Counted from the stretch's first letter, positions 2,814 to 62,781 are shown. The stretch: 64,000 nucleotides of DNA from a virus (IMGVR_UViG_3300036770_008730), one strand, 5' to 3'. Notes: generated by a model from the sequence alone, not told the origin. A program made the numbers and translations.

Positions 2814-4948
2814 ATGTTTTTACCAAACCAATCAATGTTTCTTGAGTTTGGATTTTTCCTTTGATTCTGTTTTCTCAATCTTAATACTTGTCCATAATCT
2901 AGTGATTCAACATGATCCATCTGATTAAGACAATTATTTACGTAACTTACAAAGTCTTTTGGTAAAAATTTATTAAACCACTCTTCCACCATCTCTTTAT
3001 ATTCATATTTTTGAATAATTGAAGTCATGTTGACTACGGTCATTACGGTGTCATCATGTCCAACATCGGCAGCATATCTTATGTTACCAGAGGATGTTAT
3101 GTGTTTAACAAATGTGGTTATCTCTCTTATGTTCTCTTCATTTGTTATTATAATGCTTTTTGATTGTAGAAGACCTTGATAATCTTTGACTAACAGGTTT
3201 TTATTTTCCCCTACTTTAAGACCCATTTTTTCCTCGGTTGAGTCAATTCTGTGTTTGTATCTAACAAACACAGAGGAACCATAGTTGTTTCTTCCTTCAA
3301 AAACATGTGGTAGTTCAGCAAAAAGAGCATTTCCATAGTTGTTTAACTCGACAACGACTTTTACATTTTCAGGATTTAGATATTCAAATACTATCATATA
3401 AAGTAATTCAGCAAGCTGTTTAACCGAAACCAAATTACTTCTGTAAATGCCTATCTGTTCTAATCTAAAGAAATCAACTATAGAAGTATATGATAATTTT
3501 TGAATTTCTATTAATTCAGTTGGTTTTGGAGAAATCTTAAAAATGTTTATAACAGAGTAATCTTGACCTAATCCCTCGGATATATCGACCGAAATAACTA
3601 CTTTGTAATCTTTTCTCCTAAGAGGTATGAATATCTCATCATCATCAATCCATTTTAATTCGTTATAACTGAACTTAAGTCTTGAATCAAATTCTGGTAT
3701 TTCTTCAAATAAAAAATTCTTTTTACCCTTTAATAATTCATCAATTATTGACTCACTTAATAATGATTTACTTGAATTGATAAATCTTAATCCATATTCT
3801 TGATTAAAGGCATCTTCTCCTCCTATATCTTTAATTGCTTCTTCTTTCCAAGTGGTCGTCTCCGCAATCATTCTTATAGGAACCTCATGTCCTTTTTTGT
3901 CAATGAATGTCATAGATTTAACCTCTTCATCCGAACACATCTCATTATTATAAACATAGATTATATCTTTTTGTATATCAATATTGTATATCATCTCAAC
4001 TTTTGTTTTACCTTCCCATCTTTCTTTCATCAGTTGTAGAATGTCTTCTTTTGTTACTCCATGTTCATATAATTTATGATTATTTAATCTTATGTAAGTT
4101 AGGAATCTACCTGGTACTTGATACCAGTATACCCTCATTGGTTTATAGTTATTTTTTTGAGGATCACCATCAGGCCTTTCAGCATCGGTTAGTAATCTAT
4201 GAAATAAATTCATACCATTTGGGGTTGATGTGATAATAATCTTAGAGTTTTGAACAGCTGATACAGTCGGAAATGCTGCCGTATAGTATGGTTCTATGAT
4301 ATTAGATGGGATGTGTGCAAACTCATCTAAATAAAGAACATCAATGGTAAAACCAATTGCTGGTGTTTTAGTTCTTGCTGATGTTTTTATTCTACATCCA
4401 TTTTCAAATGTTAACGACTTTTGATTCCAGGTTTTTATACCAGGTTTGAGAAAGAAAGGAAGTAGTGAGTAGATTGACTTTATTTTATCTACAATTTCTA
4501 TTGCTGTATCACCCTTATTTGCTACAATCATTATGTTCTTATCATTGTTAAATAAGATGGTATGTAACATGAAAATTGATGATGATATAGTTTTACCAAC
4601 CTGTCTTGACGCCATCAAGATATTAAATCTACTATTCATAAAATTATCAAGTATCTGTTTCTGATACTCTCTTAGTTTGATATTATTAATAGATCCATCT
4701 TCTGTTTTAACTTTACAATACTTCTCTGTGAAATAATGAACATCAAGTGCACATCTAACATATTCTTGTTGTTCATCTGGTGTCATTTTAAATGTAACAC
4801 CTGATCTTCTTAGACCGACTTCACTTTTTAGCCAAGGATTTTGAAATTTCTTTACAACAACACCATCATTTATCTTGTCTGTTGCCTCATCTACTAATTT
4901 AGTAGTGAAAATCATTTGTTTTTCTATGGGTTGTTTACCAAAGGACAT
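2810..4948 (-). CDS. terL: Terminase large subunit (T4 gp17-like)
   Basis: Walker A SRQVGKT, Walker B LYLDEFAH, TSTPNG coupling motif, nuclease motifs VDISEGLGQDYS and GHDDTVM. Confidence 0.95.
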   Translation of the reverse strand: MSFGKQPIEKQMIFTTKLVDEATDKINDGVVVKKFQNPWLKSEVGLRRSGVTFKMTPDEQQEYVRCALDVHYFTEKYCKVKTEDGSINNIKLREYQKQILDNFMNSRFNILMASRQVGKTISSSIFMLHTILFNNDKNIMIVANKGDTAIEIVDKIKSIYSLLPFFLKPGIKTWNQKSLTFENGCRIKTSARTKTPAIGFTIDVLYLDEFAHIPSNIIEPYYTAAFPTVSAVQNSKIIITSTPNGMNLFHRLLTDAERPDGDPQKNNYKPMRVYWYQVPGRFLTYIRLNNHKLYEHGVTKEDILQLMKERWEGKTKVEMIYNIDIQKDIIYVYNNEMCSDEEVKSMTFIDKKGHEVPIRMIAETTTWKEEAIKDIGGEDAFNQEYGLRFINSSKSLLSESIIDELLKGKKNFLFEEIPEFDSRLKFSYNELKWIDDDEIFIPLRRKDYKVVISVDISEGLGQDYSVINIFKISPKPTELIEIQKLSYTSIVDFFRLEQIGIYRSNLVSVKQLAELLYMIVFEYLNPENVKVVVELNNYGNALFAELPHVFEGRNNYGSSVFVRYKHRIDSTEEKMGLKVGENKNLLVKDYQGLLQSKSIIITNEENIREITTFVKHITSSGNIRYAADVGHDDTVMTVVNMTSIIQKYEYKEMVEEWFNKFLPKDFVSYVNNCLNQMDHVESLDYGQVLRLRKQNQRKNPNSRNIDWFGKNI

Positions 4949-53585: not shown

Positions 53586-54377
53586 ATGCCAGAGCTAGCT
53601 GAAGTCAAAATTGTCGCGGATTATGTAAATCACCATTCTAAGGATAGAACATTTTCTAAAGTCTTTCATGTCAAAAAAGGAAATTTACCTGAGGACTCTA
53701 ATCTAATTGAGAATTTCAAACTAATTGCTGATTCAAATGGGAAAGAATTGATACTAACTCTTAAAAATGAATTAAAGACTATTAGTATCTCTGTATTTAT
53801 GGGTATGTCTGGTAATTGGCTTTTTACCGATACTTCTACCTGGTCTGATAGAAAATTCACTAGACTTAGATTAGATACATCAGATGGTAATTCTTTATTA
53901 TTGTGGGGTCTTTATATGGGTCCTAAGTATAAAGTTGGTGGTTTTACTGGTGTAAAAAGAGGACCAGATCCAACAAAAGATTTTGACAATTTTAAATCTT
54001 CTGTTCTATCTAACTTAGATAAGAAGAATTTTGATAGGCCTATTTGTGAGGCCTTACTAGACCAAAAATATTTTAATGGTATAGGTAACTATCTTAGAAG
54101 TACAATATTGTACTATGCGAATGTTAATCCATTTGAAGTGGCCAGAGAATCACTGAAAAAAAACTCACAAATACTGGATTTGTGTAAATCAGTTCCTCTG
54201 AAGGCAATCGAATTAAATGGTGGGCAATTAAAAGACTGGAAAAGTCCGTTTGATACTGACTATGAAGAGTTCAAAAAATGGGTTTTTTATCAAAAAGGTT
54301 TATCTGTAAAAGATAATACTGGTAGAACATTTTGGTATGATGAAAAGTGGAAAGAGTTTAATATTTACAACAAATGA
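53586..54377 (+). CDS. Fpg/Nei DNA glycosylase (zincless-finger type)
   Basis: N-terminal PELAE, H2TH LLDQKYFNGIGNY, C-terminal GRTFWY with no zinc-finger cysteines. Confidence 0.9.
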   Translation: MPELAEVKIVADYVNHHSKDRTFSKVFHVKKGNLPEDSNLIENFKLIADSNGKELILTLKNELKTISISVFMGMSGNWLFTDTSTWSDRKFTRLRLDTSDGNSLLLWGLYMGPKYKVGGFTGVKRGPDPTKDFDNFKSSVLSNLDKKNFDRPICEALLDQKYFNGIGNYLRSTILYYANVNPFEVARESLKKNSQILDLCKSVPLKAIELNGGQLKDWKSPFDTDYEEFKKWVFYQKGLSVKDNTGRTFWYDEKWKEFNIYNK

Positions 54378-56158
54378 AATTTACAACAAAAAAATTACTT
54401 AGTGTGGTTTGGGAATTTGCCAAACCTTTTAGAAAATCATTTTTAATGGTTTTATTTATCATAATTTTTATGACATCGATTGATGCCATAAACTCTTATT
54501 TTATGTCAAAAGTCTTTGATTCACTTCAAACACAAACATCTTTACAGACTACACTTATCTTTTGCCTTTTATCCTTTGGATTTGTTACCCTAAGAATAGT
54601 CTTACAAAGATGGAGAGAAATATTAGAAACTAAAAAATTAGATGTTTTTATAACTAATCACCTCAATCATCAATCTATTGCTAAATTCTTTACATTTTCA
54701 AATGGACAACATATCAATGAACATTCTGGTGTAAAACAAAGTATAATAACTTCCGGGTTCTCATCGATTCAGAATTTTATGAATATGTTAATTTATAATT
54801 TAATACCACACGCTTCTTTATTTCTAGCATCATTAGTTATTTTCTATTATGTTCATTGGTCAATTGGCTTAGTCTATACGATTGGTTCTGTTATTTATTT
54901 TTGGCAAATGTTAGTTTATAACAAGCAAATACATCCAAAAGTTAAAGAGGTAAATGAAATTAGAAATCAAAACTCTAGATTTATATCCGAAGTTTATCGA
55001 TATGTATTTCTGATAAAAAATGAGGTTGCTGAAAAGAAAACACTTTCTAATTTAGAGGATATTCAATCAAAATTTTATAATAAAAATTTGGAGACTTGGA
55101 CTTTTGGTCTTAAAAAGATAATGTGGATAAGACTAGTGCCGAATATATTCAGATATTCTACTATGTTAATTTCTGTTTGGTTATTTTTTCAAGGATTGAC
55201 AACCATTGGTGGTTTGTTTTTAGTATTCACTTGGTCTAGTCATTTCATTAATAGTTTGTGGTGGTTAGCTGAAATTCAAAAACAATTTATTACTGATAAG
55301 ATTAATATAGAGAAGTATTTTGAAATGCTTGAAATTCCTTCTGATATAGAGTTTTCCGATAATCCTGTTTCTAAGTCAAACTATTCTGAAATTGAATTTA
55401 AAAGTGTAGAATTCTCTTATCCTAAAAGAACAAAAGAACATACAGATGAAAAACAAGAAAAAGAACCAGTATTGAAATCTATATCTTTTAAGATTGAGAG
55501 TGGTGAGAAAGTTGCATTTGTGGGAGAATCTGGATCTGGTAAATCCACTATTGCTAATCTTATTAGAAGAGCTTTTGATCCTCAGTCTGGTGAGATATTA
55601 ATAGATGGTGTTAATCTAAGAGATTTAGAATTATCAAATTTTTTGAAATCAATAGGTTCTGTTGACCAAGAGGTTATTTTATTTGACCGCTCACTAAGAG
55701 ATAACATTTCTTTTGGTTTGGATAGAATACTAACCAATGAAGAATTAGAATCGATTTCCAAAAAGAGTGGAGTAAGTAAGTTTTTTCATAAATTAGAACA
55801 TGGTTGGGACACAATAATTGGTGAAAGAGGTTGTAAGCTATCTGGTGGTGAAAGACAAAGAATTGGTATTGCCAGGGCTTTAGCAAAAAAGCCAGAAATA
55901 CTTATCTTTGATGAGGCTACTTCAGCTTTAGATTCAGTAAGTGAAACATTTGTTCAAAAATCAATTGATGAAAGTTGCAAAGGCAAAACCTCAATAGTTA
56001 TAGCTCATAGATTATCCACTGTTAAAAACTGCGATAGAATATTTGTTATGAAAGATGGAGAGATTATCTGTAGTGGAACACATAGATATCTTTTATCTAA
56101 TTGTGAATATTATAATAATTTAATCAAAAATCAATTACAGGAAGTTTTAGTAAACTAA
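54374..56158 (+). CDS. ABCB-type exporter (TMD plus NBD half transporter)
   Basis: Six TM segments; GESGSGKST, LSGGERQR, DEATSALD, IAHRL. Confidence 0.95.
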   Translation: MKFTTKKLLSVVWEFAKPFRKSFLMVLFIIIFMTSIDAINSYFMSKVFDSLQTQTSLQTTLIFCLLSFGFVTLRIVLQRWREILETKKLDVFITNHLNHQSIAKFFTFSNGQHINEHSGVKQSIITSGFSSIQNFMNMLIYNLIPHASLFLASLVIFYYVHWSIGLVYTIGSVIYFWQMLVYNKQIHPKVKEVNEIRNQNSRFISEVYRYVFLIKNEVAEKKTLSNLEDIQSKFYNKNLETWTFGLKKIMWIRLVPNIFRYSTMLISVWLFFQGLTTIGGLFLVFTWSSHFINSLWWLAEIQKQFITDKINIEKYFEMLEIPSDIEFSDNPVSKSNYSEIEFKSVEFSYPKRTKEHTDEKQEKEPVLKSISFKIESGEKVAFVGESGSGKSTIANLIRRAFDPQSGEILIDGVNLRDLELSNFLKSIGSVDQEVILFDRSLRDNISFGLDRILTNEELESISKKSGVSKFFHKLEHGWDTIIGERGCKLSGGERQRIGIARALAKKPEILIFDEATSALDSVSETFVQKSIDESCKGKTSIVIAHRLSTVKNCDRIFVMKDGEIICSGTHRYLLSNCEYYNNLIKNQLQEVLVN

Positions 56159-56184
56159 TTTTTTGAATTAGTGTATAATGATTA

Positions 56185-56691
56185 ATGATTGATTGTGATT
56201 ATATAATTTTTCACGGTGACCGAAATGTCGGAAGAAGTTCATTGTTATTTACTTTAGCTAACATCTGTAAGTCTAATAATGAAACTACTTTTTTCTTTGG
56301 CACCACCGATGAATTCAATTCAGAATCTATGATAGATAGTCCTTTTTCGAGAAAGTTCTTTTATAGACACAGAGATACAAGGTTAGTCGAAAATATTTTT
56401 CAAATAGCAGAAAGAGAAAAGTGTCAGTATGTTTTTATCGATGATATTGATTTTCTAAGTGTAGAGGATTTGAAAATAATTAATGAGTCAAAAGTCAAAA
56501 AAATTGCAACTTGTCTCACTGGTAAGATTCCTAAGCTTACGACTTATAAATCCTATGAATTATCTAGTGTATATGATGATGCAACCTTTAGAGAAGAAAA
56601 ATACCTCAGTTCTGATGGTTCAAAAATACCAATTACAGTTTTTTTCAAAACATTTGAAAGAGACAAAAAAATAAATTCAATACTTAAATGA
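56185..56691 (+). CDS. Degenerate P-loop NTPase-fold protein
   Basis: GDRNVGRS (Walker A K to R), VFIDD; C-terminal FERDKKINSIL. Confidence 0.55.
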   Translation: MIDCDYIIFHGDRNVGRSSLLFTLANICKSNNETTFFFGTTDEFNSESMIDSPFSRKFFYRHRDTRLVENIFQIAEREKCQYVFIDDIDFLSVEDLKIINESKVKKIATCLTGKIPKLTTYKSYELSSVYDDATFREEKYLSSDGSKIPITVFFKTFERDKKINSILK

Positions 56692-57863
56692 AGAATAATG
56701 TTGATGAACAATATTTACAATTAGTAAAACACATACTTAAAAATGGTGTAAAGAAATCTGATAGAACTGGAACTGGAACACTTTCGGTTTTTGATTATTC
56801 TATGAGATTCGATATGAGTGAAGGATTTCCACTCTTAACATCAAAAAAGATGTTTACAAAAGGTGTGATTCACGAACTTATTTGGTTTTTAAGGGGAGAT
56901 ACAAATATCAAATATCTTGTTGATAATGATGTTCATATCTGGGATGGAGACGCTTATAAACGATTTTTAACAGATGCAGCATCAATTAAAGAAGGATATT
57001 TGTCAGGTGACATTTTAGGTTCACAACCACACATTGATGAAATGTTTAGTAATCCTGATGAATTGATTATTTTAACAAAAGAAGAATTCATTGAAAAAAT
57101 CAAAACAGACGATGAATTTGCTAAGAAGTGGGGAAATCTCGGTCCCGTGTATGGGAAGCAATGGATAAGTTGGTCTAAATTTAATGATCGATCGGCAAGA
57201 GTAACTAAGCAAATTAGAGAAACTCCAAAAGATGGAGGATTTCCACAAACCAGAAATATTAATTGGATTGAAGGTGGTGAAGTAGTTTACATAGACCAAA
57301 TCGCAAACCTAATCAACGACCTTAAAACAAATCCTGATTCTAGAAGACTAATGGTAAGTGCCTGGAACGTCGGTGAAATAGACAATATGGTTTTGCCTCC
57401 ATGTCACTATGGATTTCAATGTTATACACAAGAGATGAATCTCTTTGAGAGAAAAAAATGGTGGTGTGAGTCTTTGGAGAAAAGTATTCATTATGCTGAA
57501 GATTTTAATGAGAAAGAACTAGACACATTAAATGTTCCTAAAAGAAAATTAAGTTTAAAATGGAATCAAAGATCGGTCGATGTCGGTTTAGGTTTGGGAT
57601 TCAACATAGCTTCTTATGCTTTACTTTTACACTTACTTGCAAAAGAGGTAAATATGATACCAAATGAGTTGATATTCTCTGGTGGAGATTGTCACATTTA
57701 TTTGAATCATGTTGAGAAGTTAAAAGAACAGTTACAAAATGAAACTTTTGAATTGCCAAAATTAGAATTAACAAATACATCTTTTGATGATATAAAGTAT
57801 GAAGATATAAAAATAATAAATTACAAATCCTCAGGGGTTATAAAAATGAACTTATCAAATTAA
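56688..57863 (+). CDS. thyA: Thymidylate synthase with insertions
   Basis: DRTGTGT, LPPCH catalytic Cys, QRSVD..FNIASY (Asn gives dUMP specificity), HIYLNH. Confidence 0.97.
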   Translation: MKNNVDEQYLQLVKHILKNGVKKSDRTGTGTLSVFDYSMRFDMSEGFPLLTSKKMFTKGVIHELIWFLRGDTNIKYLVDNDVHIWDGDAYKRFLTDAASIKEGYLSGDILGSQPHIDEMFSNPDELIILTKEEFIEKIKTDDEFAKKWGNLGPVYGKQWISWSKFNDRSARVTKQIRETPKDGGFPQTRNINWIEGGEVVYIDQIANLINDLKTNPDSRRLMVSAWNVGEIDNMVLPPCHYGFQCYTQEMNLFERKKWWCESLEKSIHYAEDFNEKELDTLNVPKRKLSLKWNQRSVDVGLGLGFNIASYALLLHLLAKEVNMIPNELIFSGGDCHIYLNHVEKLKEQLQNETFELPKLELTNTSFDDIKYEDIKIINYKSSGVIKMNLSN

Positions 57864-58563: not shown

Positions 58564-59226
58564 CTAACCTTTTTTGAAGTCTAATTTATCCGATTTTATA
58601 TATCTATTGGTATATGAGCACAATGGTTGAAGATTTGAGTAATGATTCAACTTTAAGATGTCCTCTTCGGATTTTGCGGAAGATAATGGAACTATATGAT
58701 CAATTTCCCATCCATAGTTTAACTCTCCATTATATAATCCATAATTATTCCAGTTCATCCAATCTTCAAATTTTGATTCTATGTGAATTTTTAATTCAAG
58801 TGGTGTACATCCTATGATTTCATGTGTTCTTGATATTTTCACATATCCATTTTTCTTCAAAATACATCTTATCGAACTTCCTATGCGTTCACATAATCTT
58901 TTTGGTGCATTATTCCTCCTTAATTCATTGATTTCTTCTTTATTTAGTTTATATTTTTCTCGTCTTTTTTGTGTTATAGATTCTTTATTTTTTTGAAAGT
59001 AATTTTTTTTATATTCTTTAACTTTATCTTTGTCTATTTTTCTTTTTTCCTTATTATATTTTTTACCTCTTTCGCTTTCTTTTTCTTTGTTTTTGTTTCT
59101 ATACTCAGTGTATATTATTTTACAACAACTTCTACAATTAATGTTAAGTCCGTCTTTCTTGTTTTTATCCTTCGTGAACTCGAATAATTCTTTTTCTGAC
59201 TTACAAGTTGAACAATTTTTACTCAT
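58564..59226 (-). CDS. HNH homing endonuclease
   Basis: CSTC/CRSC zinc knuckle; WEIDHIVPLS..LNHYSNLQPL; own TAATATATA at 59245-59253. Confidence 0.85.
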   Translation of the reverse strand: MSKNCSTCKSEKELFEFTKDKNKKDGLNINCRSCCKIIYTEYRNKNKEKESERGKKYNKEKRKIDKDKVKEYKKNYFQKNKESITQKRREKYKLNKEEINELRRNNAPKRLCERIGSSIRCILKKNGYVKISRTHEIIGCTPLELKIHIESKFEDWMNWNNYGLYNGELNYGWEIDHIVPLSSAKSEEDILKLNHYSNLQPLCSYTNRYIKSDKLDFKKG

Positions 59227-59344
59227 ACATTTAATTAATTTTTGTATATATTAATATTGAGTATCTATCAAACTTTTTTTCACAGAATTCTATAACATTT
59301 AAATAAAAAATAATCCAGAAGTCATTTTAGTAGAAACACAATAT

Positions 59345-61024
59345 TTGACCAACAGTAAGAAGCTTGTAGTTAGCTATGTTGATAAAACAGGAGATATAAA
59401 GCTTAAATATTATAATTGGGATAACCCAATGAAGTATGTTGCCTGTGAAGATACTGATACACAAAAGCATCCTAAGTTTAAATCTTGGGATGGGAAATCA
59501 GTAAAACAAATTGAAGTTAATCAGCCTGATAGATATGCTATCTATGAATTCTTAGATCATTTACCAGAATCTGAAAAACAAGAAATATTTGAATTCAATT
59601 TACCTAAAATCTATTTTATAGATATTGAGACTGAAATTCTTGATGGGTTTCCAGAGGCAGCTGATATAAAAGATCCAGCTGGAAATGTTATTAAAGAAGG
59701 AGCGGCTACAAGAGTTCTTTCCATTTCTATAGTTTATGAGGATAAGATTATATTGTTGGGTCTAAAGGACCTTTCACAGGATGCTCAAGATAGAATTATC
59801 AAAAACTCAAATAAGTATTTTGAAAAGTTCTCAGCTGATTACAAGTTCAAATATATGAAGTATGATGATGAGTTTGATATGCTTCATGCTTTCTTCTATA
59901 AGATGGTTCCTAAAATGGCACTACTTACTGGTTGGAACTTCCTTAATTATGACTGGTTATATTTAGTAAATCGTTCTAGAAAGTTATCAAAGTTTATCAA
60001 TGGTAAGGAATATAAAATCGATCCAGCTGTTTCATCTCTTACAAAAAGAATGAACAAGATTTGGTCAACTGAGTTTGAGGTTCCGGCTCATAGAATGATT
60101 TTTGATTATATGCAACTTTATGAAGTGTGTGATACTTCTATCAAAGTTAAAGAGTCGTCATCTTTAGATTTTGTTTCTAATAAGTTAGTTGGTATAGAAA
60201 AGATTAAGTATGTTAATTCTATTTTTAAGTTAAATCAAGATTCCACTATTGGTGGTTATGACTTCAAAGAAGGAGATATATGTCGTTCAGACAAACAGGG
60301 ATATTATATGTATATAGGAACCGATAGAATTGATTTTACCAAAGAACAATTTAGTAAGTATAAATCTTTATTCAAAGAAGTAAATGTTTCTAATTTACAG
60401 AAATTGTATGAAGAAGACTTTGAGATTTATATGTATTATAACGCTGTCGATTCAGTGTTAGTTCAAAAAATTCATGATGCTAGAAATTATATTTCAATCA
60501 TATATGCGATTTCATCACTTGCTCAAATTAGAATAGTGGATGTTGTTTCTCAAATGAATAATGCTCTTGGTTCTTTGGCAATCACAGAAGGAGTTTTAAG
60601 AAACAGATTTCGTAAAATGGATAACATTGTTCTTTTTAGAGATGAAAAAGGAGATGCTGAGTCAACTATTGCAGGTGGTTGGGTAAAGGATCCAGTTGTT
60701 GGAATGAATCAATGGTGTGTTTGTTACGATTTTGCCTCACTTTATCCTACAACGCAAAGGCAATTCTTTATCGCTCCTGAGACATTTGTTGGATTAGAAG
60801 ATGAAAATAAGAGAGGTTATTGTACAAATGGTAGAAAGATAGACTTAGAAAAGCATGTTCTTTGTGTTAATGGTGTTGTATTTGAGAAGAGAAAATCTCC
60901 TACTTTAATTATGCTTGAAGATGTTTACGCTGATAGAAAGAAGAATAAGAATATAATGATGGATAAAAAAGAAGAACTTAAAAAAGTTCTTGATGAGATA
61001 AAGCAACTCGAATCTGATTTATAA
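59345..61024 (+). CDS. gp43: Family-B DNA polymerase, N-terminal half only (gp43A-like: 3'-5' exonuclease plus palm motif A)
   Basis: ExoI DIETE, ExoII GWNFLNYD, ExoIII YNAVD, motif A DFASLYP; ends just after DRKKNK without KxxxNSxYG or YGDTDS; non-ATG start. Confidence 0.9.
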   Translation: MTNSKKLVVSYVDKTGDIKLKYYNWDNPMKYVACEDTDTQKHPKFKSWDGKSVKQIEVNQPDRYAIYEFLDHLPESEKQEIFEFNLPKIYFIDIETEILDGFPEAADIKDPAGNVIKEGAATRVLSISIVYEDKIILLGLKDLSQDAQDRIIKNSNKYFEKFSADYKFKYMKYDDEFDMLHAFFYKMVPKMALLTGWNFLNYDWLYLVNRSRKLSKFINGKEYKIDPAVSSLTKRMNKIWSTEFEVPAHRMIFDYMQLYEVCDTSIKVKESSSLDFVSNKLVGIEKIKYVNSIFKLNQDSTIGGYDFKEGDICRSDKQGYYMYIGTDRIDFTKEQFSKYKSLFKEVNVSNLQKLYEEDFEIYMYYNAVDSVLVQKIHDARNYISIIYAISSLAQIRIVDVVSQMNNALGSLAITEGVLRNRFRKMDNIVLFRDEKGDAESTIAGGWVKDPVVGMNQWCVCYDFASLYPTTQRQFFIAPETFVGLEDENKRGYCTNGRKIDLEKHVLCVNGVVFEKRKSPTLIMLEDVYADRKKNKNIMMDKKEELKKVLDEIKQLESDL

Positions 61025-61061
61025 TTCCTTAAAAATATATAAAAAAAAGACTTTAAATACT

Positions 61062-61070
61062 TAATATATA
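61062..61070 (+). promoter_or_regulatory. TAATATATA putative late promoter
   Basis: Exact motif upstream of the ATG at 61096. Confidence 0.55.
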
Positions 61071-61095: not shown

Positions 61096-62781
61096 ATGCA
61101 AATTAAAAATTTTTCAAATCATTCTAATGAGTATGTTAAGTTGTATGAATCTAAACTATCTCAATGTGAGTTTTTATCAGAACAAAAGATTACTGCGAAT
61201 GACATCATAAATCCTCTTGAAGACCTAATCACTGAAGAGTTCATCAAAAAAATGATTGACAGAATTGGTGACAGTAAGTTTGGTCAAACTGTAAAGAATG
61301 TTGCGTCTACAGTAAAGACTGCAGTAAGTAATTTTTTCAATGGTGTTGTTAATTTCTTTAAAAACTTCTCATTCAAAAAATTGATAGGGGGTATCGTAAA
61401 CAAAATCAAAGAAATAGGATCTAAGGCTTGGCAAAAAGTAAAAGACGCTTTGTCATCTATGAGAGAATTTATTCTTCAAAATAATATGGTCGATCCTGAA
61501 ACAGGAAAGCCAATTTTGAAAAACATATGGTCTGTTCTTTGTACAAAGGCTAAAAGTGTTATCAACATGAAGGACTCTGGTCTTTCTGATGCTGATTTAC
61601 AGAAAGCTGGTGGTCAGATACAATTAAACGAAGCAGCTGATAAATATGATATTGGTGATGATGAGGTGAAGTACTATGGTGTATTTGAAAAAATTTCACA
61701 TGCTTTGGGTATCAAAAATGCGAGATTCAACGGTGTTGTTTCTCAGATTATGAAAAAAGGTACAATTGGTTTAATAATTATTGGTTTGATGAAGGTTGCG
61801 GGTTTAAGTCTTGGAGCCTTAGCAATAGCTAATCCAATAGCTATGGCTGTGATTGGTGGTATGTTATTGATGGCTGGTTTAATAATTTTAGCAATTTGGA
61901 TTTGCAAACCTTATCCTACGGTTGACGATTGTTTAGCTTATTTACATATGTTTTTTGGTAATAATCTTAAAAGCACTGGTATTACTGTTATTTTCAGTCA
62001 GACAAATTATAATATCAATATTGGAATTTCTGGTGGTAAAGAGGAAGATGTTACTACTGAAAAAGATGAAGAACCTATAAAAGATGATGGTGGTGAGGAC
62101 AAAAAAGAGCCTCTTCCTGAAAAATCACTTTACCCATTAATGATTAAAAATCTTAAAGCACTTCAAAGTATGTTAATTTCTTTTGATGGTGTTTCATTAG
62201 AAGGTGATGAACTTGCTAAAGGTAGTCGAGTTAAACAGAAAGAAAAACAAAAGGAAAAAGAAAAGGAAAAGGTAAGAGAAAGTCTAAGAGTTTTATCTTT
62301 TAGTGAATTAATTTTAGAAAAAGAATTTACTAAACAACCAAGAAATGTAAAGATTACAAAAGGTGAAGATTATCTTACCCAAGCTTTCAAAAATATTACT
62401 AAGTCAATTCAGAATATTAAGAATGAAAGTGATAAAGGTATATCTATTACTGATAAGTTTGTTGGTGATATTCTTTCTAAGAAAATGGAAGCTAAAGATG
62501 TTATTAAATCACTTTATGATGATATTTATGAACATTTGTATGGTAAATATGCTTCTACGATGCCTGACTTCGGAGCACTTTATAAAGAAAGTGTAGATGT
62601 TATATCTAAAACGGCTCAAAGAAAAATTGTAGCTGAGAAGATTGCAAGATTAGCTAAGAGAACGATGCAGTTTGAAGGTGAAGGTTTCTATAGTGGTTTA
62701 GGTGAGTTTGGTGCGGATATGGAAGAATTCAACACTACTTTAAAACAAATTATGGATTCTTTGAAAGCAGAAAATAAATAA
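61096..62781 (+). CDS. Putative internal virion/ejection protein with TM hairpin and a domain shared with 8826..11954
   Basis: MQIKNFS..KLYES..LSE leader; hydrophobic GLIIIGL..LAIWI segment; C-terminal GEDYLTQAF..VAEKIAR domain. Confidence 0.6.
   Translation: MQIKNFSNHSNEYVKLYESKLSQCEFLSEQKITANDIINPLEDLITEEFIKKMIDRIGDSKFGQTVKNVASTVKTAVSNFFNGVVNFFKNFSFKKLIGGIVNKIKEIGSKAWQKVKDALSSMREFILQNNMVDPETGKPILKNIWSVLCTKAKSVINMKDSGLSDADLQKAGGQIQLNEAADKYDIGDDEVKYYGVFEKISHALGIKNARFNGVVSQIMKKGTIGLIIIGLMKVAGLSLGALAIANPIAMAVIGGMLLMAGLIILAIWICKPYPTVDDCLAYLHMFFGNNLKSTGITVIFSQTNYNINIGISGGKEEDVTTEKDEEPIKDDGGEDKKEPLPEKSLYPLMIKNLKALQSMLISFDGVSLEGDELAKGSRVKQKEKQKEKEKEKVRESLRVLSFSELILEKEFTKQPRNVKITKGEDYLTQAFKNITKSIQNIKNESDKGISITDKFVGDILSKKMEAKDVIKSLYDDIYEHLYGKYASTMPDFGALYKESVDVISKTAQRKIVAEKIARLAKRTMQFEGEGFYSGLGEFGADMEEFNTTLKQIMDSLKAENK

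Follow-up and report, generated by a model that had tools for sequence, protein, structure and literature searches.

Several systems are known in which a PolB is made from two polypeptides. For T4-related phages, a replicase divided into gp43A and gp43B is on record from Aeromonas phages 25, 31, 44RR and 65 and from Acinetobacter phage 133 (Petrov et al. 2006, 2010, as cited in PMC3061061). For the archaeon Methanothermobacter thermautotrophicus, the same source cites a split PolB whose genes are 85 kb apart and whose subunits associate non-covalently (Kelman et al. 1999), and it reports that separately made fragments of a Pfu polymerase split by design at the fingertip reconstitute a fully active enzyme with wild-type kinetics (PMC3061061). 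In phage PhiKZ, the products of two unlinked genes, gp82 (DNAP-N) and gp50 (DNAP-C), form a stable 1:1 active heterodimer, as established by cryo-EM and assays (PMC13648687, preprint 2026). A gene may also be divided as a split-intein "fractured gene", defined by an intein N-fragment that ends the upstream piece and a C-fragment that starts the downstream piece (Dassa et al. 2009, PMC2677866). No description of a split PolB in huge phages or Lak phages was found in the literature.

The window analyzed here, a stretch of 64,000 nucleotides from the viral genome IMGVR_UViG_3300036770_008730, contains an ORF (59345-61024, + strand, 559 aa, TAA stop at 61022-61024) that most probably (with a probability of about 0.85) encodes the N-terminal subunit, or N-half, of a two-subunit gp43-type replicase of a phage of ~0.6 Mb, acting in non-covalent association with a distantly encoded C-terminal subunit, or C-half.

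As in gp43A/gp43B, the replicase is of the T4/RB69 type, the break lies at the fingertip between helices N and P with no intein, and in relatives the two parts are independently translated cistrons. Unlike those cistrons, which PMC3061061 places 2 bp to 3 kb apart, the halves in the megaphage lineage studied here (genomes of 0.5-0.7 Mb) are separated by 41-132 kb, or by 222 kb in Lak-A1, and frequently lie on different strands. Among annotated homologues, the nearest (24-26% identity) are PAU gp105/gp110 and MA9V-2 gp192/gp196, both halves of which are annotated as DNA polymerase in GenBank; they break ~90-100 residues past motif A, as in the window, but their halves are 2.4-3.4 kb apart with 3-4 genes between. 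PhiKZ likewise has two unlinked PolB genes and divides the motifs in the same manner, A being in the N subunit and C in the C subunit; however, it belongs to a divergent PolB clade with extra domains and is split within a large palm insertion before the fingers. The Methanothermobacter enzyme resembles those of the megaphages in having distant genes, but it is archaeal and is split in the palm, ~83 residues C-terminal to the fingertip. The engineered Pfu is, as here, a PolB cut near the finger tip, although that split is artificial, archaeal and made from one bicistronic construct. In architecture the enzyme follows the fingertip-split gp43 already described, and PhiKZ and Methanothermobacter provide precedents for unlinked PolB halves; the separation of the genes is unusually wide.

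Polymerase motifs of the N-half

For the 559-aa product, the content comprises an N-terminal domain, a 3'-5' exonuclease, the part of the palm with motif A, and finger helix N. Among Pfam families, PF03104 (exonuclease) scored above cut-off, and PF00136 was covered only at 18-155 of its 453 positions. The PHROG match, phrog_2062 ("DNA polymerase", 502 positions), was reached right to its end, which hints that this may be a family of N-terminal halves. RB69 and T4 gp43 were the best matches in a search of solved structures (E 4.7e-14).

All catalytic motifs expected of this portion of the enzyme could be aligned to RB69. On the + strand, Exo I (D93-I-E95 in FIDIETE, 59621-59629) corresponds to RB69 D114/E116, the Exo II aspartate (D203 in NFLNYD, 59951-59953) to D222, and Exo III (Y365-x3-D369 in YYNAVD, 60437-60451) to Y323/D327. 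Motif A (DFASLYP, 60728-60748) has its metal-binding D462 at the position of D411, and finger helix N (residues 519-559, 60899-61021) bears the triphosphate contacts R531/K535, equivalent to R482/K486. The Exo I, Exo II and Exo III catalytic residues are invariant across 25 relatives, and motif A and the finger-helix R/K are invariant across the clade. The N-half therefore has the Exo I/II/III, motif A and finger-helix contacts of a gp43-type PolB (T4/RB69), while motifs B and C, which a gp43-type enzyme has on the same polypeptide, are found in relatives on a separate ORF.

The protein ends ~24 residues past K535, the K486 equivalent. In a six-frame motif scan of the whole 64-kb window, motif A was found once, neither motif B (KxxxNSxYG) nor YxDTDS was found, and the sole DTDS match belongs to a 93-codon frame unrelated to the polymerase. 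The gene that follows (61096-62781) is read in a different frame, resembles no polymerase, and is preceded by an TTAATATATA element at 61061-61070. The ORF, Pfam and the RB69 alignment thus agree with the first-pass annotation that an exonuclease and motif A are followed by a stop after the fingers helix, and its further observations, that motifs B and C are missing from the window and that the next gene is unrelated, were likewise borne out; for the promoter that it assigns to the next gene, the element at 61061-61070 is the candidate.

Between Exo II and Exo III there is a beta-rich insertion of ~58 residues (~292-349; 60218-60391, + strand), predicted to be a small domain, with AlphaFold strands at 292-347 at pLDDT ~90. 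Among the aligned rows it is confined to the window and two members of its closest sub-clade (L013, L015); the N-half of L049 is similarly long. Its Pfam matches are weak only (YunG, DUF5778).

Start codon and upstream elements

For the start of the gene, relatives, as well as two fused homologues described below, use an ATG seven codons upstream of 59345, where the window has ATT (59324). The seven in-frame codons from this position (ATT TTA GTA GAA ACA CAA TAT, 59324-59344, + strand, I-LVETQY) match the MLVETQY of relatives, the six residues after the ATT being conserved and in frame. The N-half would start either at a rare AUU (ATT 59324) or at TTG 59345, and the ATT in place of the usual ATG leaves both its start and its expression level uncertain.

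A promoter-like element, AAACTTTTTTTCACAGAATTCTATAA, can be read directly from the sequence at 59270-59295 (+ strand), ~50 nt 5' of the gene. An element of the form AAACTTTT-N14-17-TATAA/CATAAA precedes the N-halves and most of the unlinked C-halves of relatives, where it lies ~31 nt before the C-half starts (L109, L112, L117, L128, W02 and others). This sharing suggests that the two halves may be co-expressed from one promoter class for replication genes. The window has 15 copies of the AAACTTTT-type element, spread over both strands, so that it is not a feature of the polymerase gene alone.

Conservation of the terminus and selection

The closest relatives of the window, which has a GC content of 26-36%, are the uncultured huge phages LR745206 and LR756502 (72-73% identity) and LR756501 (37%), with genomes of 630-735 kb. 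Remoter ones are the Lak megaphages (27%) and Sphingomonas phage PAU and Chryseobacterium phages MA9V (24-26%), and IMG/VR contributed 44 related loci, the best matching at 85%.

In ~45 relatives the N-half stops at the same residue, ~98 residues past motif A, after a conserved tail (...DRKKNKKIMMxKKEELKxVxDEIKxLExEL), and TAA, TGA and TAG are all used as the stop at this shared terminus. From this distribution, the stop of the N-half is ancestral. As ~45 relatives share the terminus with all three stop codons, sequencing error and stop recoding are excluded; read-through was also rejected on the grounds that the downstream frame is unrelated. The dN/dS ratio for the whole gene is 0.03-0.07 (0.043 and 0.052 for the least saturated pairs, 0.05-0.07 against the closest relatives), and the last 40 codons are likewise constrained.

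A sequencing or assembly error, in which a frameshift or chimeric join would have cut a normal polB short, is negligibly probable: the terminus is common to ~45 independent assemblies, no polymerase motif lies downstream in any frame, and the flanking genes are syntenic with LR745206. The frameshift, assembly error or remnant that had been named as possible refutations of a split polymerase are, for the clade, excluded by the conserved stop, the three stop codons and the strong purifying selection.

Partner genes in related phages

For the C-half, whole records of relatives were searched with PF00136 at the family cut-off. Exactly two polymerase pieces were found per complete genome, with no other match above cut-off, and no full-length polB was found by this search alongside the halves in the complete or large relatives. 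The second piece, an ORF of 474-566 aa, opens with a short charged helix, which is followed by KLVLNGSYG (motif B), YGDTDS or YADTDS (motif C) and the thumb. In all, the records of ten relatives contain a partner gene of this sort, which has a start codon of its own and encodes helix P, the two remaining motifs (B and C) and the thumb. Together, the two pieces hold every PolB motif exactly once in these relatives, and both are conserved.

The halves are 100.8 kb apart in LR745206, 132 kb in LR756502 and, if the genome is circular, ~115 kb across the ends in LR756501. Among the IMG/VR genomes the distances are 94.5 kb (G003, G020, G022), 112.5 kb (G005), 131 kb (G004) and 41 kb (G016). In Lak-A1 the halves are 222 kb apart, and they are 2.4 kb apart in PAU (gp105/gp110) and 3.4 kb in MA9V-2 (gp192/gp196). 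A TnpB-family gene lies between the polymerase halves of MA9V-2 (L069, 7660-8826), so mobile DNA is present in that gap. The adjacency of gp43A and gp43B is not seen at this locus: the window holds no nearby second half, and in the megaphage relatives the two are far apart. A distant ORF beginning with a helix and followed by KxxxNSxYG/YGDTDS had been predicted, and it is present in every sufficiently complete relative, 41-132 kb away and with no full-length polB. Two large contigs were without a C-half, and in both the N-half is at most ~100 kb from a contig end.

The genome of the window presumably has the same partner outside the window. In LR745206 the C-half is at 131 kb; since synteny with the window is limited to 165-184 and 209-234 kb of that genome, this position is beyond anything the window covers.

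It is conceivable that the N-half is an unused, decaying remnant and that the genome replicates with another polymerase, such as a full-length polB encoded elsewhere. The partner is seen in relatives and not within the window, and the canonical ATG has become ATT, as a remnant might show. However, the catalytic residues are all intact, dN/dS against the closest relatives is low, the 559-codon frame has stayed open in a genome of 29% GC, and in complete relatives a single N-half is accompanied by a single C-half and by no full-length polB; decay is accordingly quite improbable, and a functional N subunit is the preferred reading.

Position of the break

A search for longer relatives identified two fused full-length forms, P0001 (989 aa, 47% identity) and P0002 (1018 aa, 35%). 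The distance from the finger Lys to the motif-B Lys is 54-55 residues in the fused forms, versus 24 (N tail) plus 33 (C head) in the split ones. In an AlphaFold model of P0001, run with natural halves as alignment rows, a helix (467-506), a turn (507-509) and the motif-B helix (510-544) were predicted at pLDDT 70-83, and the split ends map to P0001 residues 507 and 505. According to this model, the break coincides exactly with the turn that joins finger helices N and P. The palm segment with motif A and helix N both precede it, so that it falls within the fingers and not, as in PhiKZ and Methanothermobacter, in the palm or a palm insertion.

For the N-half alone, AlphaFold predicted a confident exonuclease body and a single terminal helix of 40 residues (519-558), with the motif-A palm undefined (pLDDT 26-45), as would be expected because the N-half holds only half a palm. 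Because it is the exonuclease body that the model folds with confidence, the N-half might be thought to serve as an exonuclease for proofreading without the C-half, either by itself or together with some other protein. Such a role would not need motif A or the triphosphate-binding R/K, which are invariant, and the N- and C-halves occur one-to-one in complete relatives; this possibility is very unlikely compared with a polymerase subunit.

The tail had been described in the first-pass annotation as a coiled coil. The AlphaFold helix and the turn of the fused homologue show it instead as ordinary finger helix N, and a special coiled-coil dimerization module was rejected, as the tail and head add up to the length of a normal finger hairpin. 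No special coiled coil is needed because the helices are those of the native hairpin broken at its turn and the halves also complete one palm. Of the proposal of a two-subunit PolB from unlinked genes reassembled through a coiled coil, the unlinked two-gene arrangement holds in relatives, whereas the mode of reassembly is better ascribed to the native finger hairpin and the shared palm.

Alternatively, a split intein or RNA trans-splicing could link the halves covalently into a single chain after they are made. Split inteins do occur in this enzyme family, and in Lak-A1 intein N- and C-fragments surround motif C. At the break in question, no intein domain was detected by Pfam in the N-half of the window or in the C-halves of relatives, and Rfam returned no match, and so no intron, in the window, in agreement with the earlier observation that no such signature is present; an intein or intron at the break was rejected on these searches. 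The arrangement of a fractured gene, found at motif C of Lak-A1, is not found at the break in the window. Moreover, the tail ends as a plain helix, the C-half begins with Met-Thr/Asn-Lys and offers no Cys/Ser/Thr junction, and the tail and head together have the length of the fused hairpin, leaving no room for splicing elements. Covalent joining therefore has little to recommend it, and non-covalent association is preferred.

Genomic context and evolution of the split

For the surrounding region, window positions 27-61 kb are collinear with 209-234 kb of LR745206. In finer detail, 27137-61024 is collinear and 72-21888 is inverted (183.6 down to 164.8 kb in LR745206); judged from this alignment, the inversion of the first 22 kb is a large rearrangement between close relatives. 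At 54374-56691 (+ strand) the window encodes a 594-aa ABC-type transporter, read from sequence by its transmembrane domain, Walker A (GESGSGKST) and signature (LSGGERQR), and a 168-aa AAA-like protein, without counterpart in the syntenic region of LR745206. The following gene (56688-57863, + strand) encodes a thymidylate synthase of 391 aa with an end-to-end match to a Pfam profile of 266 positions, and from this difference in length it carries an insertion of ~125 residues.

A free-standing HNH-type endonuclease gene (58564-59226, - strand), with weak matches to Pfam HNH and to PHROG endonuclease families, is divergent from the N-half gene and lies 118 nt upstream of it. LR745206 lacks it at the syntenic position, and homologues with 35% identity are located just 3' of the C-half genes of three relatives (L108, L112, L120). 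Judging from these gene positions, putative homing-endonuclease genes cluster around both polB halves.

In a quick tree, assessed by SH-aLRT support and subject to long-branch warnings, the fused P0001 is sister to the all-split clade of the window, and the fused P0002 lies inside the split LR756501-type clade. With this placement, the break would have been gained, or reverted, more than once; as fused forms occur in sister lineages, the split state cannot be assumed for every relative.

The C-terminal part of the Lak-A1 polB is itself a fractured gene (L156, MK250016.1 425000-431000; ORFs 1064-1879, 1879-2997 and 3328-4302). Downstream of motif C there is an intein N-fragment; next comes an endonuclease-like ORF of its own (read with TAG=Q), and the last ORF opens with an intein C-fragment (…AHN|S). 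As this part is fractured, the Lak PolB is in three genes, the N-half being 222 kb away.

Hairpin-containing gaps in the C-half genes of relatives

In 30 of the 54 IMG/VR C-half loci, the coding sequence near motif B contains an insert of 36-46 nt at one of four positions (for example, among loci L111-L154, L122:1590-1650, L152:1615-1680 and L131:1600-1650). Each insert consists of five unpaired nucleotides, usually with a stop, a GC hairpin of 10-16 bp (-17 to -31 kcal/mol) and an A-rich spacer, and the gap lengths fall in all three classes modulo 3. At three sites the take-off and landing codons are synonymous pairs from four-fold boxes (CTT->CTA, GCT->GCA/GCT, GTT->GTA), and at the fourth they do not match (TAT->AAC, TAC->GAC). 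A stop is found 0-1 codon past take-off in 16 of 20 distinct-locus examples, and the G-rich 3' hairpin arms are mostly 5-9 nt before landing. Within its ~480-kb carrier genomes the hairpin has essentially no second copy, and three independent assemblies show it unchanged. At 17 of the ~30 insert-bearing loci, and at none of the 22-24 uninterrupted ones, a divergent gene of at least 255 aa lies 42-89 nt upstream; the seven such genes sampled match DUF7487 and/or phrog_5104, with PHROG "homing endonuclease" families matched in addition by four.

The bypass cassette of T4 mobA/gene 60 is marked by take-off and landing codons that one tRNA can read, a stop or hungry codon after take-off, a stem-loop, a triplet resembling an SD sequence 5-7 nt ahead of the landing site, and a homing-endonuclease gene next to it (bioRxiv 10.1101/2022.08.31.505936). 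The hairpin gaps resemble this arrangement and are candidates for translational bypass of the gene 60 type. Simple frameshifting was rejected, as the lengths fall in all classes modulo 3 and in-frame gaps keep their stops, and reinitiation is unlikely because no in-frame start precedes the essential motif-B Lys. GC-rich hairpin elements of this kind were not found in the 64-kb window. Some C-halves (L141-L143, ~1926-2379) have an extra insert of ~450 nt after residue ~149, and others (L132, L144, L146) match only from residue ~115 onward, which suggests that there may be further interruptions or splits of the C-half.

A tentative and rather doubtful extension of these observations is that the polB halves of megaphages are hot spots for selfish endonucleases, that this traffic made both the split and a second bypass family, and that the C-half of this genome, outside the window, is gapped as well. 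If this were true, that C-half could be made only by ribosomes that jump across 36-46 nt of hairpin-bearing sequence at motif B, and assembly of the polymerase from separate halves could be a regulated step.

Proposed assembly and conclusions

Most probably, an ancestral gp43-type gene was divided where the chain turns from one finger helix to the other. From the N subunit would come the N-terminal domain, the exonuclease for proofreading, the half of the palm that bears motif A, and helix N of the fingers with R531/K535. The C subunit, transcribed and translated on its own from a gene tens to hundreds of kb away, would bring helix P of the fingers, which carries motif B, together with motif C and the thumb. 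On association, the antiparallel finger hairpin would be re-formed and, mainly, a single palm sheet would be completed. That this association is non-covalent is inferred by analogy, because the engineered split Pfu, the natural gp43A/B and PhiKZ gp82/gp50 assemble in this way.

Non-covalent reassembly of split PolB is already established from T4-like phages, Pfu, PhiKZ and Methanothermobacter, and the present finding extends this picture and does not change it. The more surprising material is in the partner genes of relatives, namely the hairpin coding gaps with their homing endonucleases and the split intein of Lak. In annotation pipelines and marker-gene phylogenies built on a single polB, the halves will be miscalled or truncated. 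On the reading favored here, the main replicase of the largest known phages would be made of two proteins encoded 40-220 kb apart, and the interleaving of fused and split forms in one clade, with halves ranging from adjacent to distant, would provide a natural series for the study of enzyme fission and gene dispersal.
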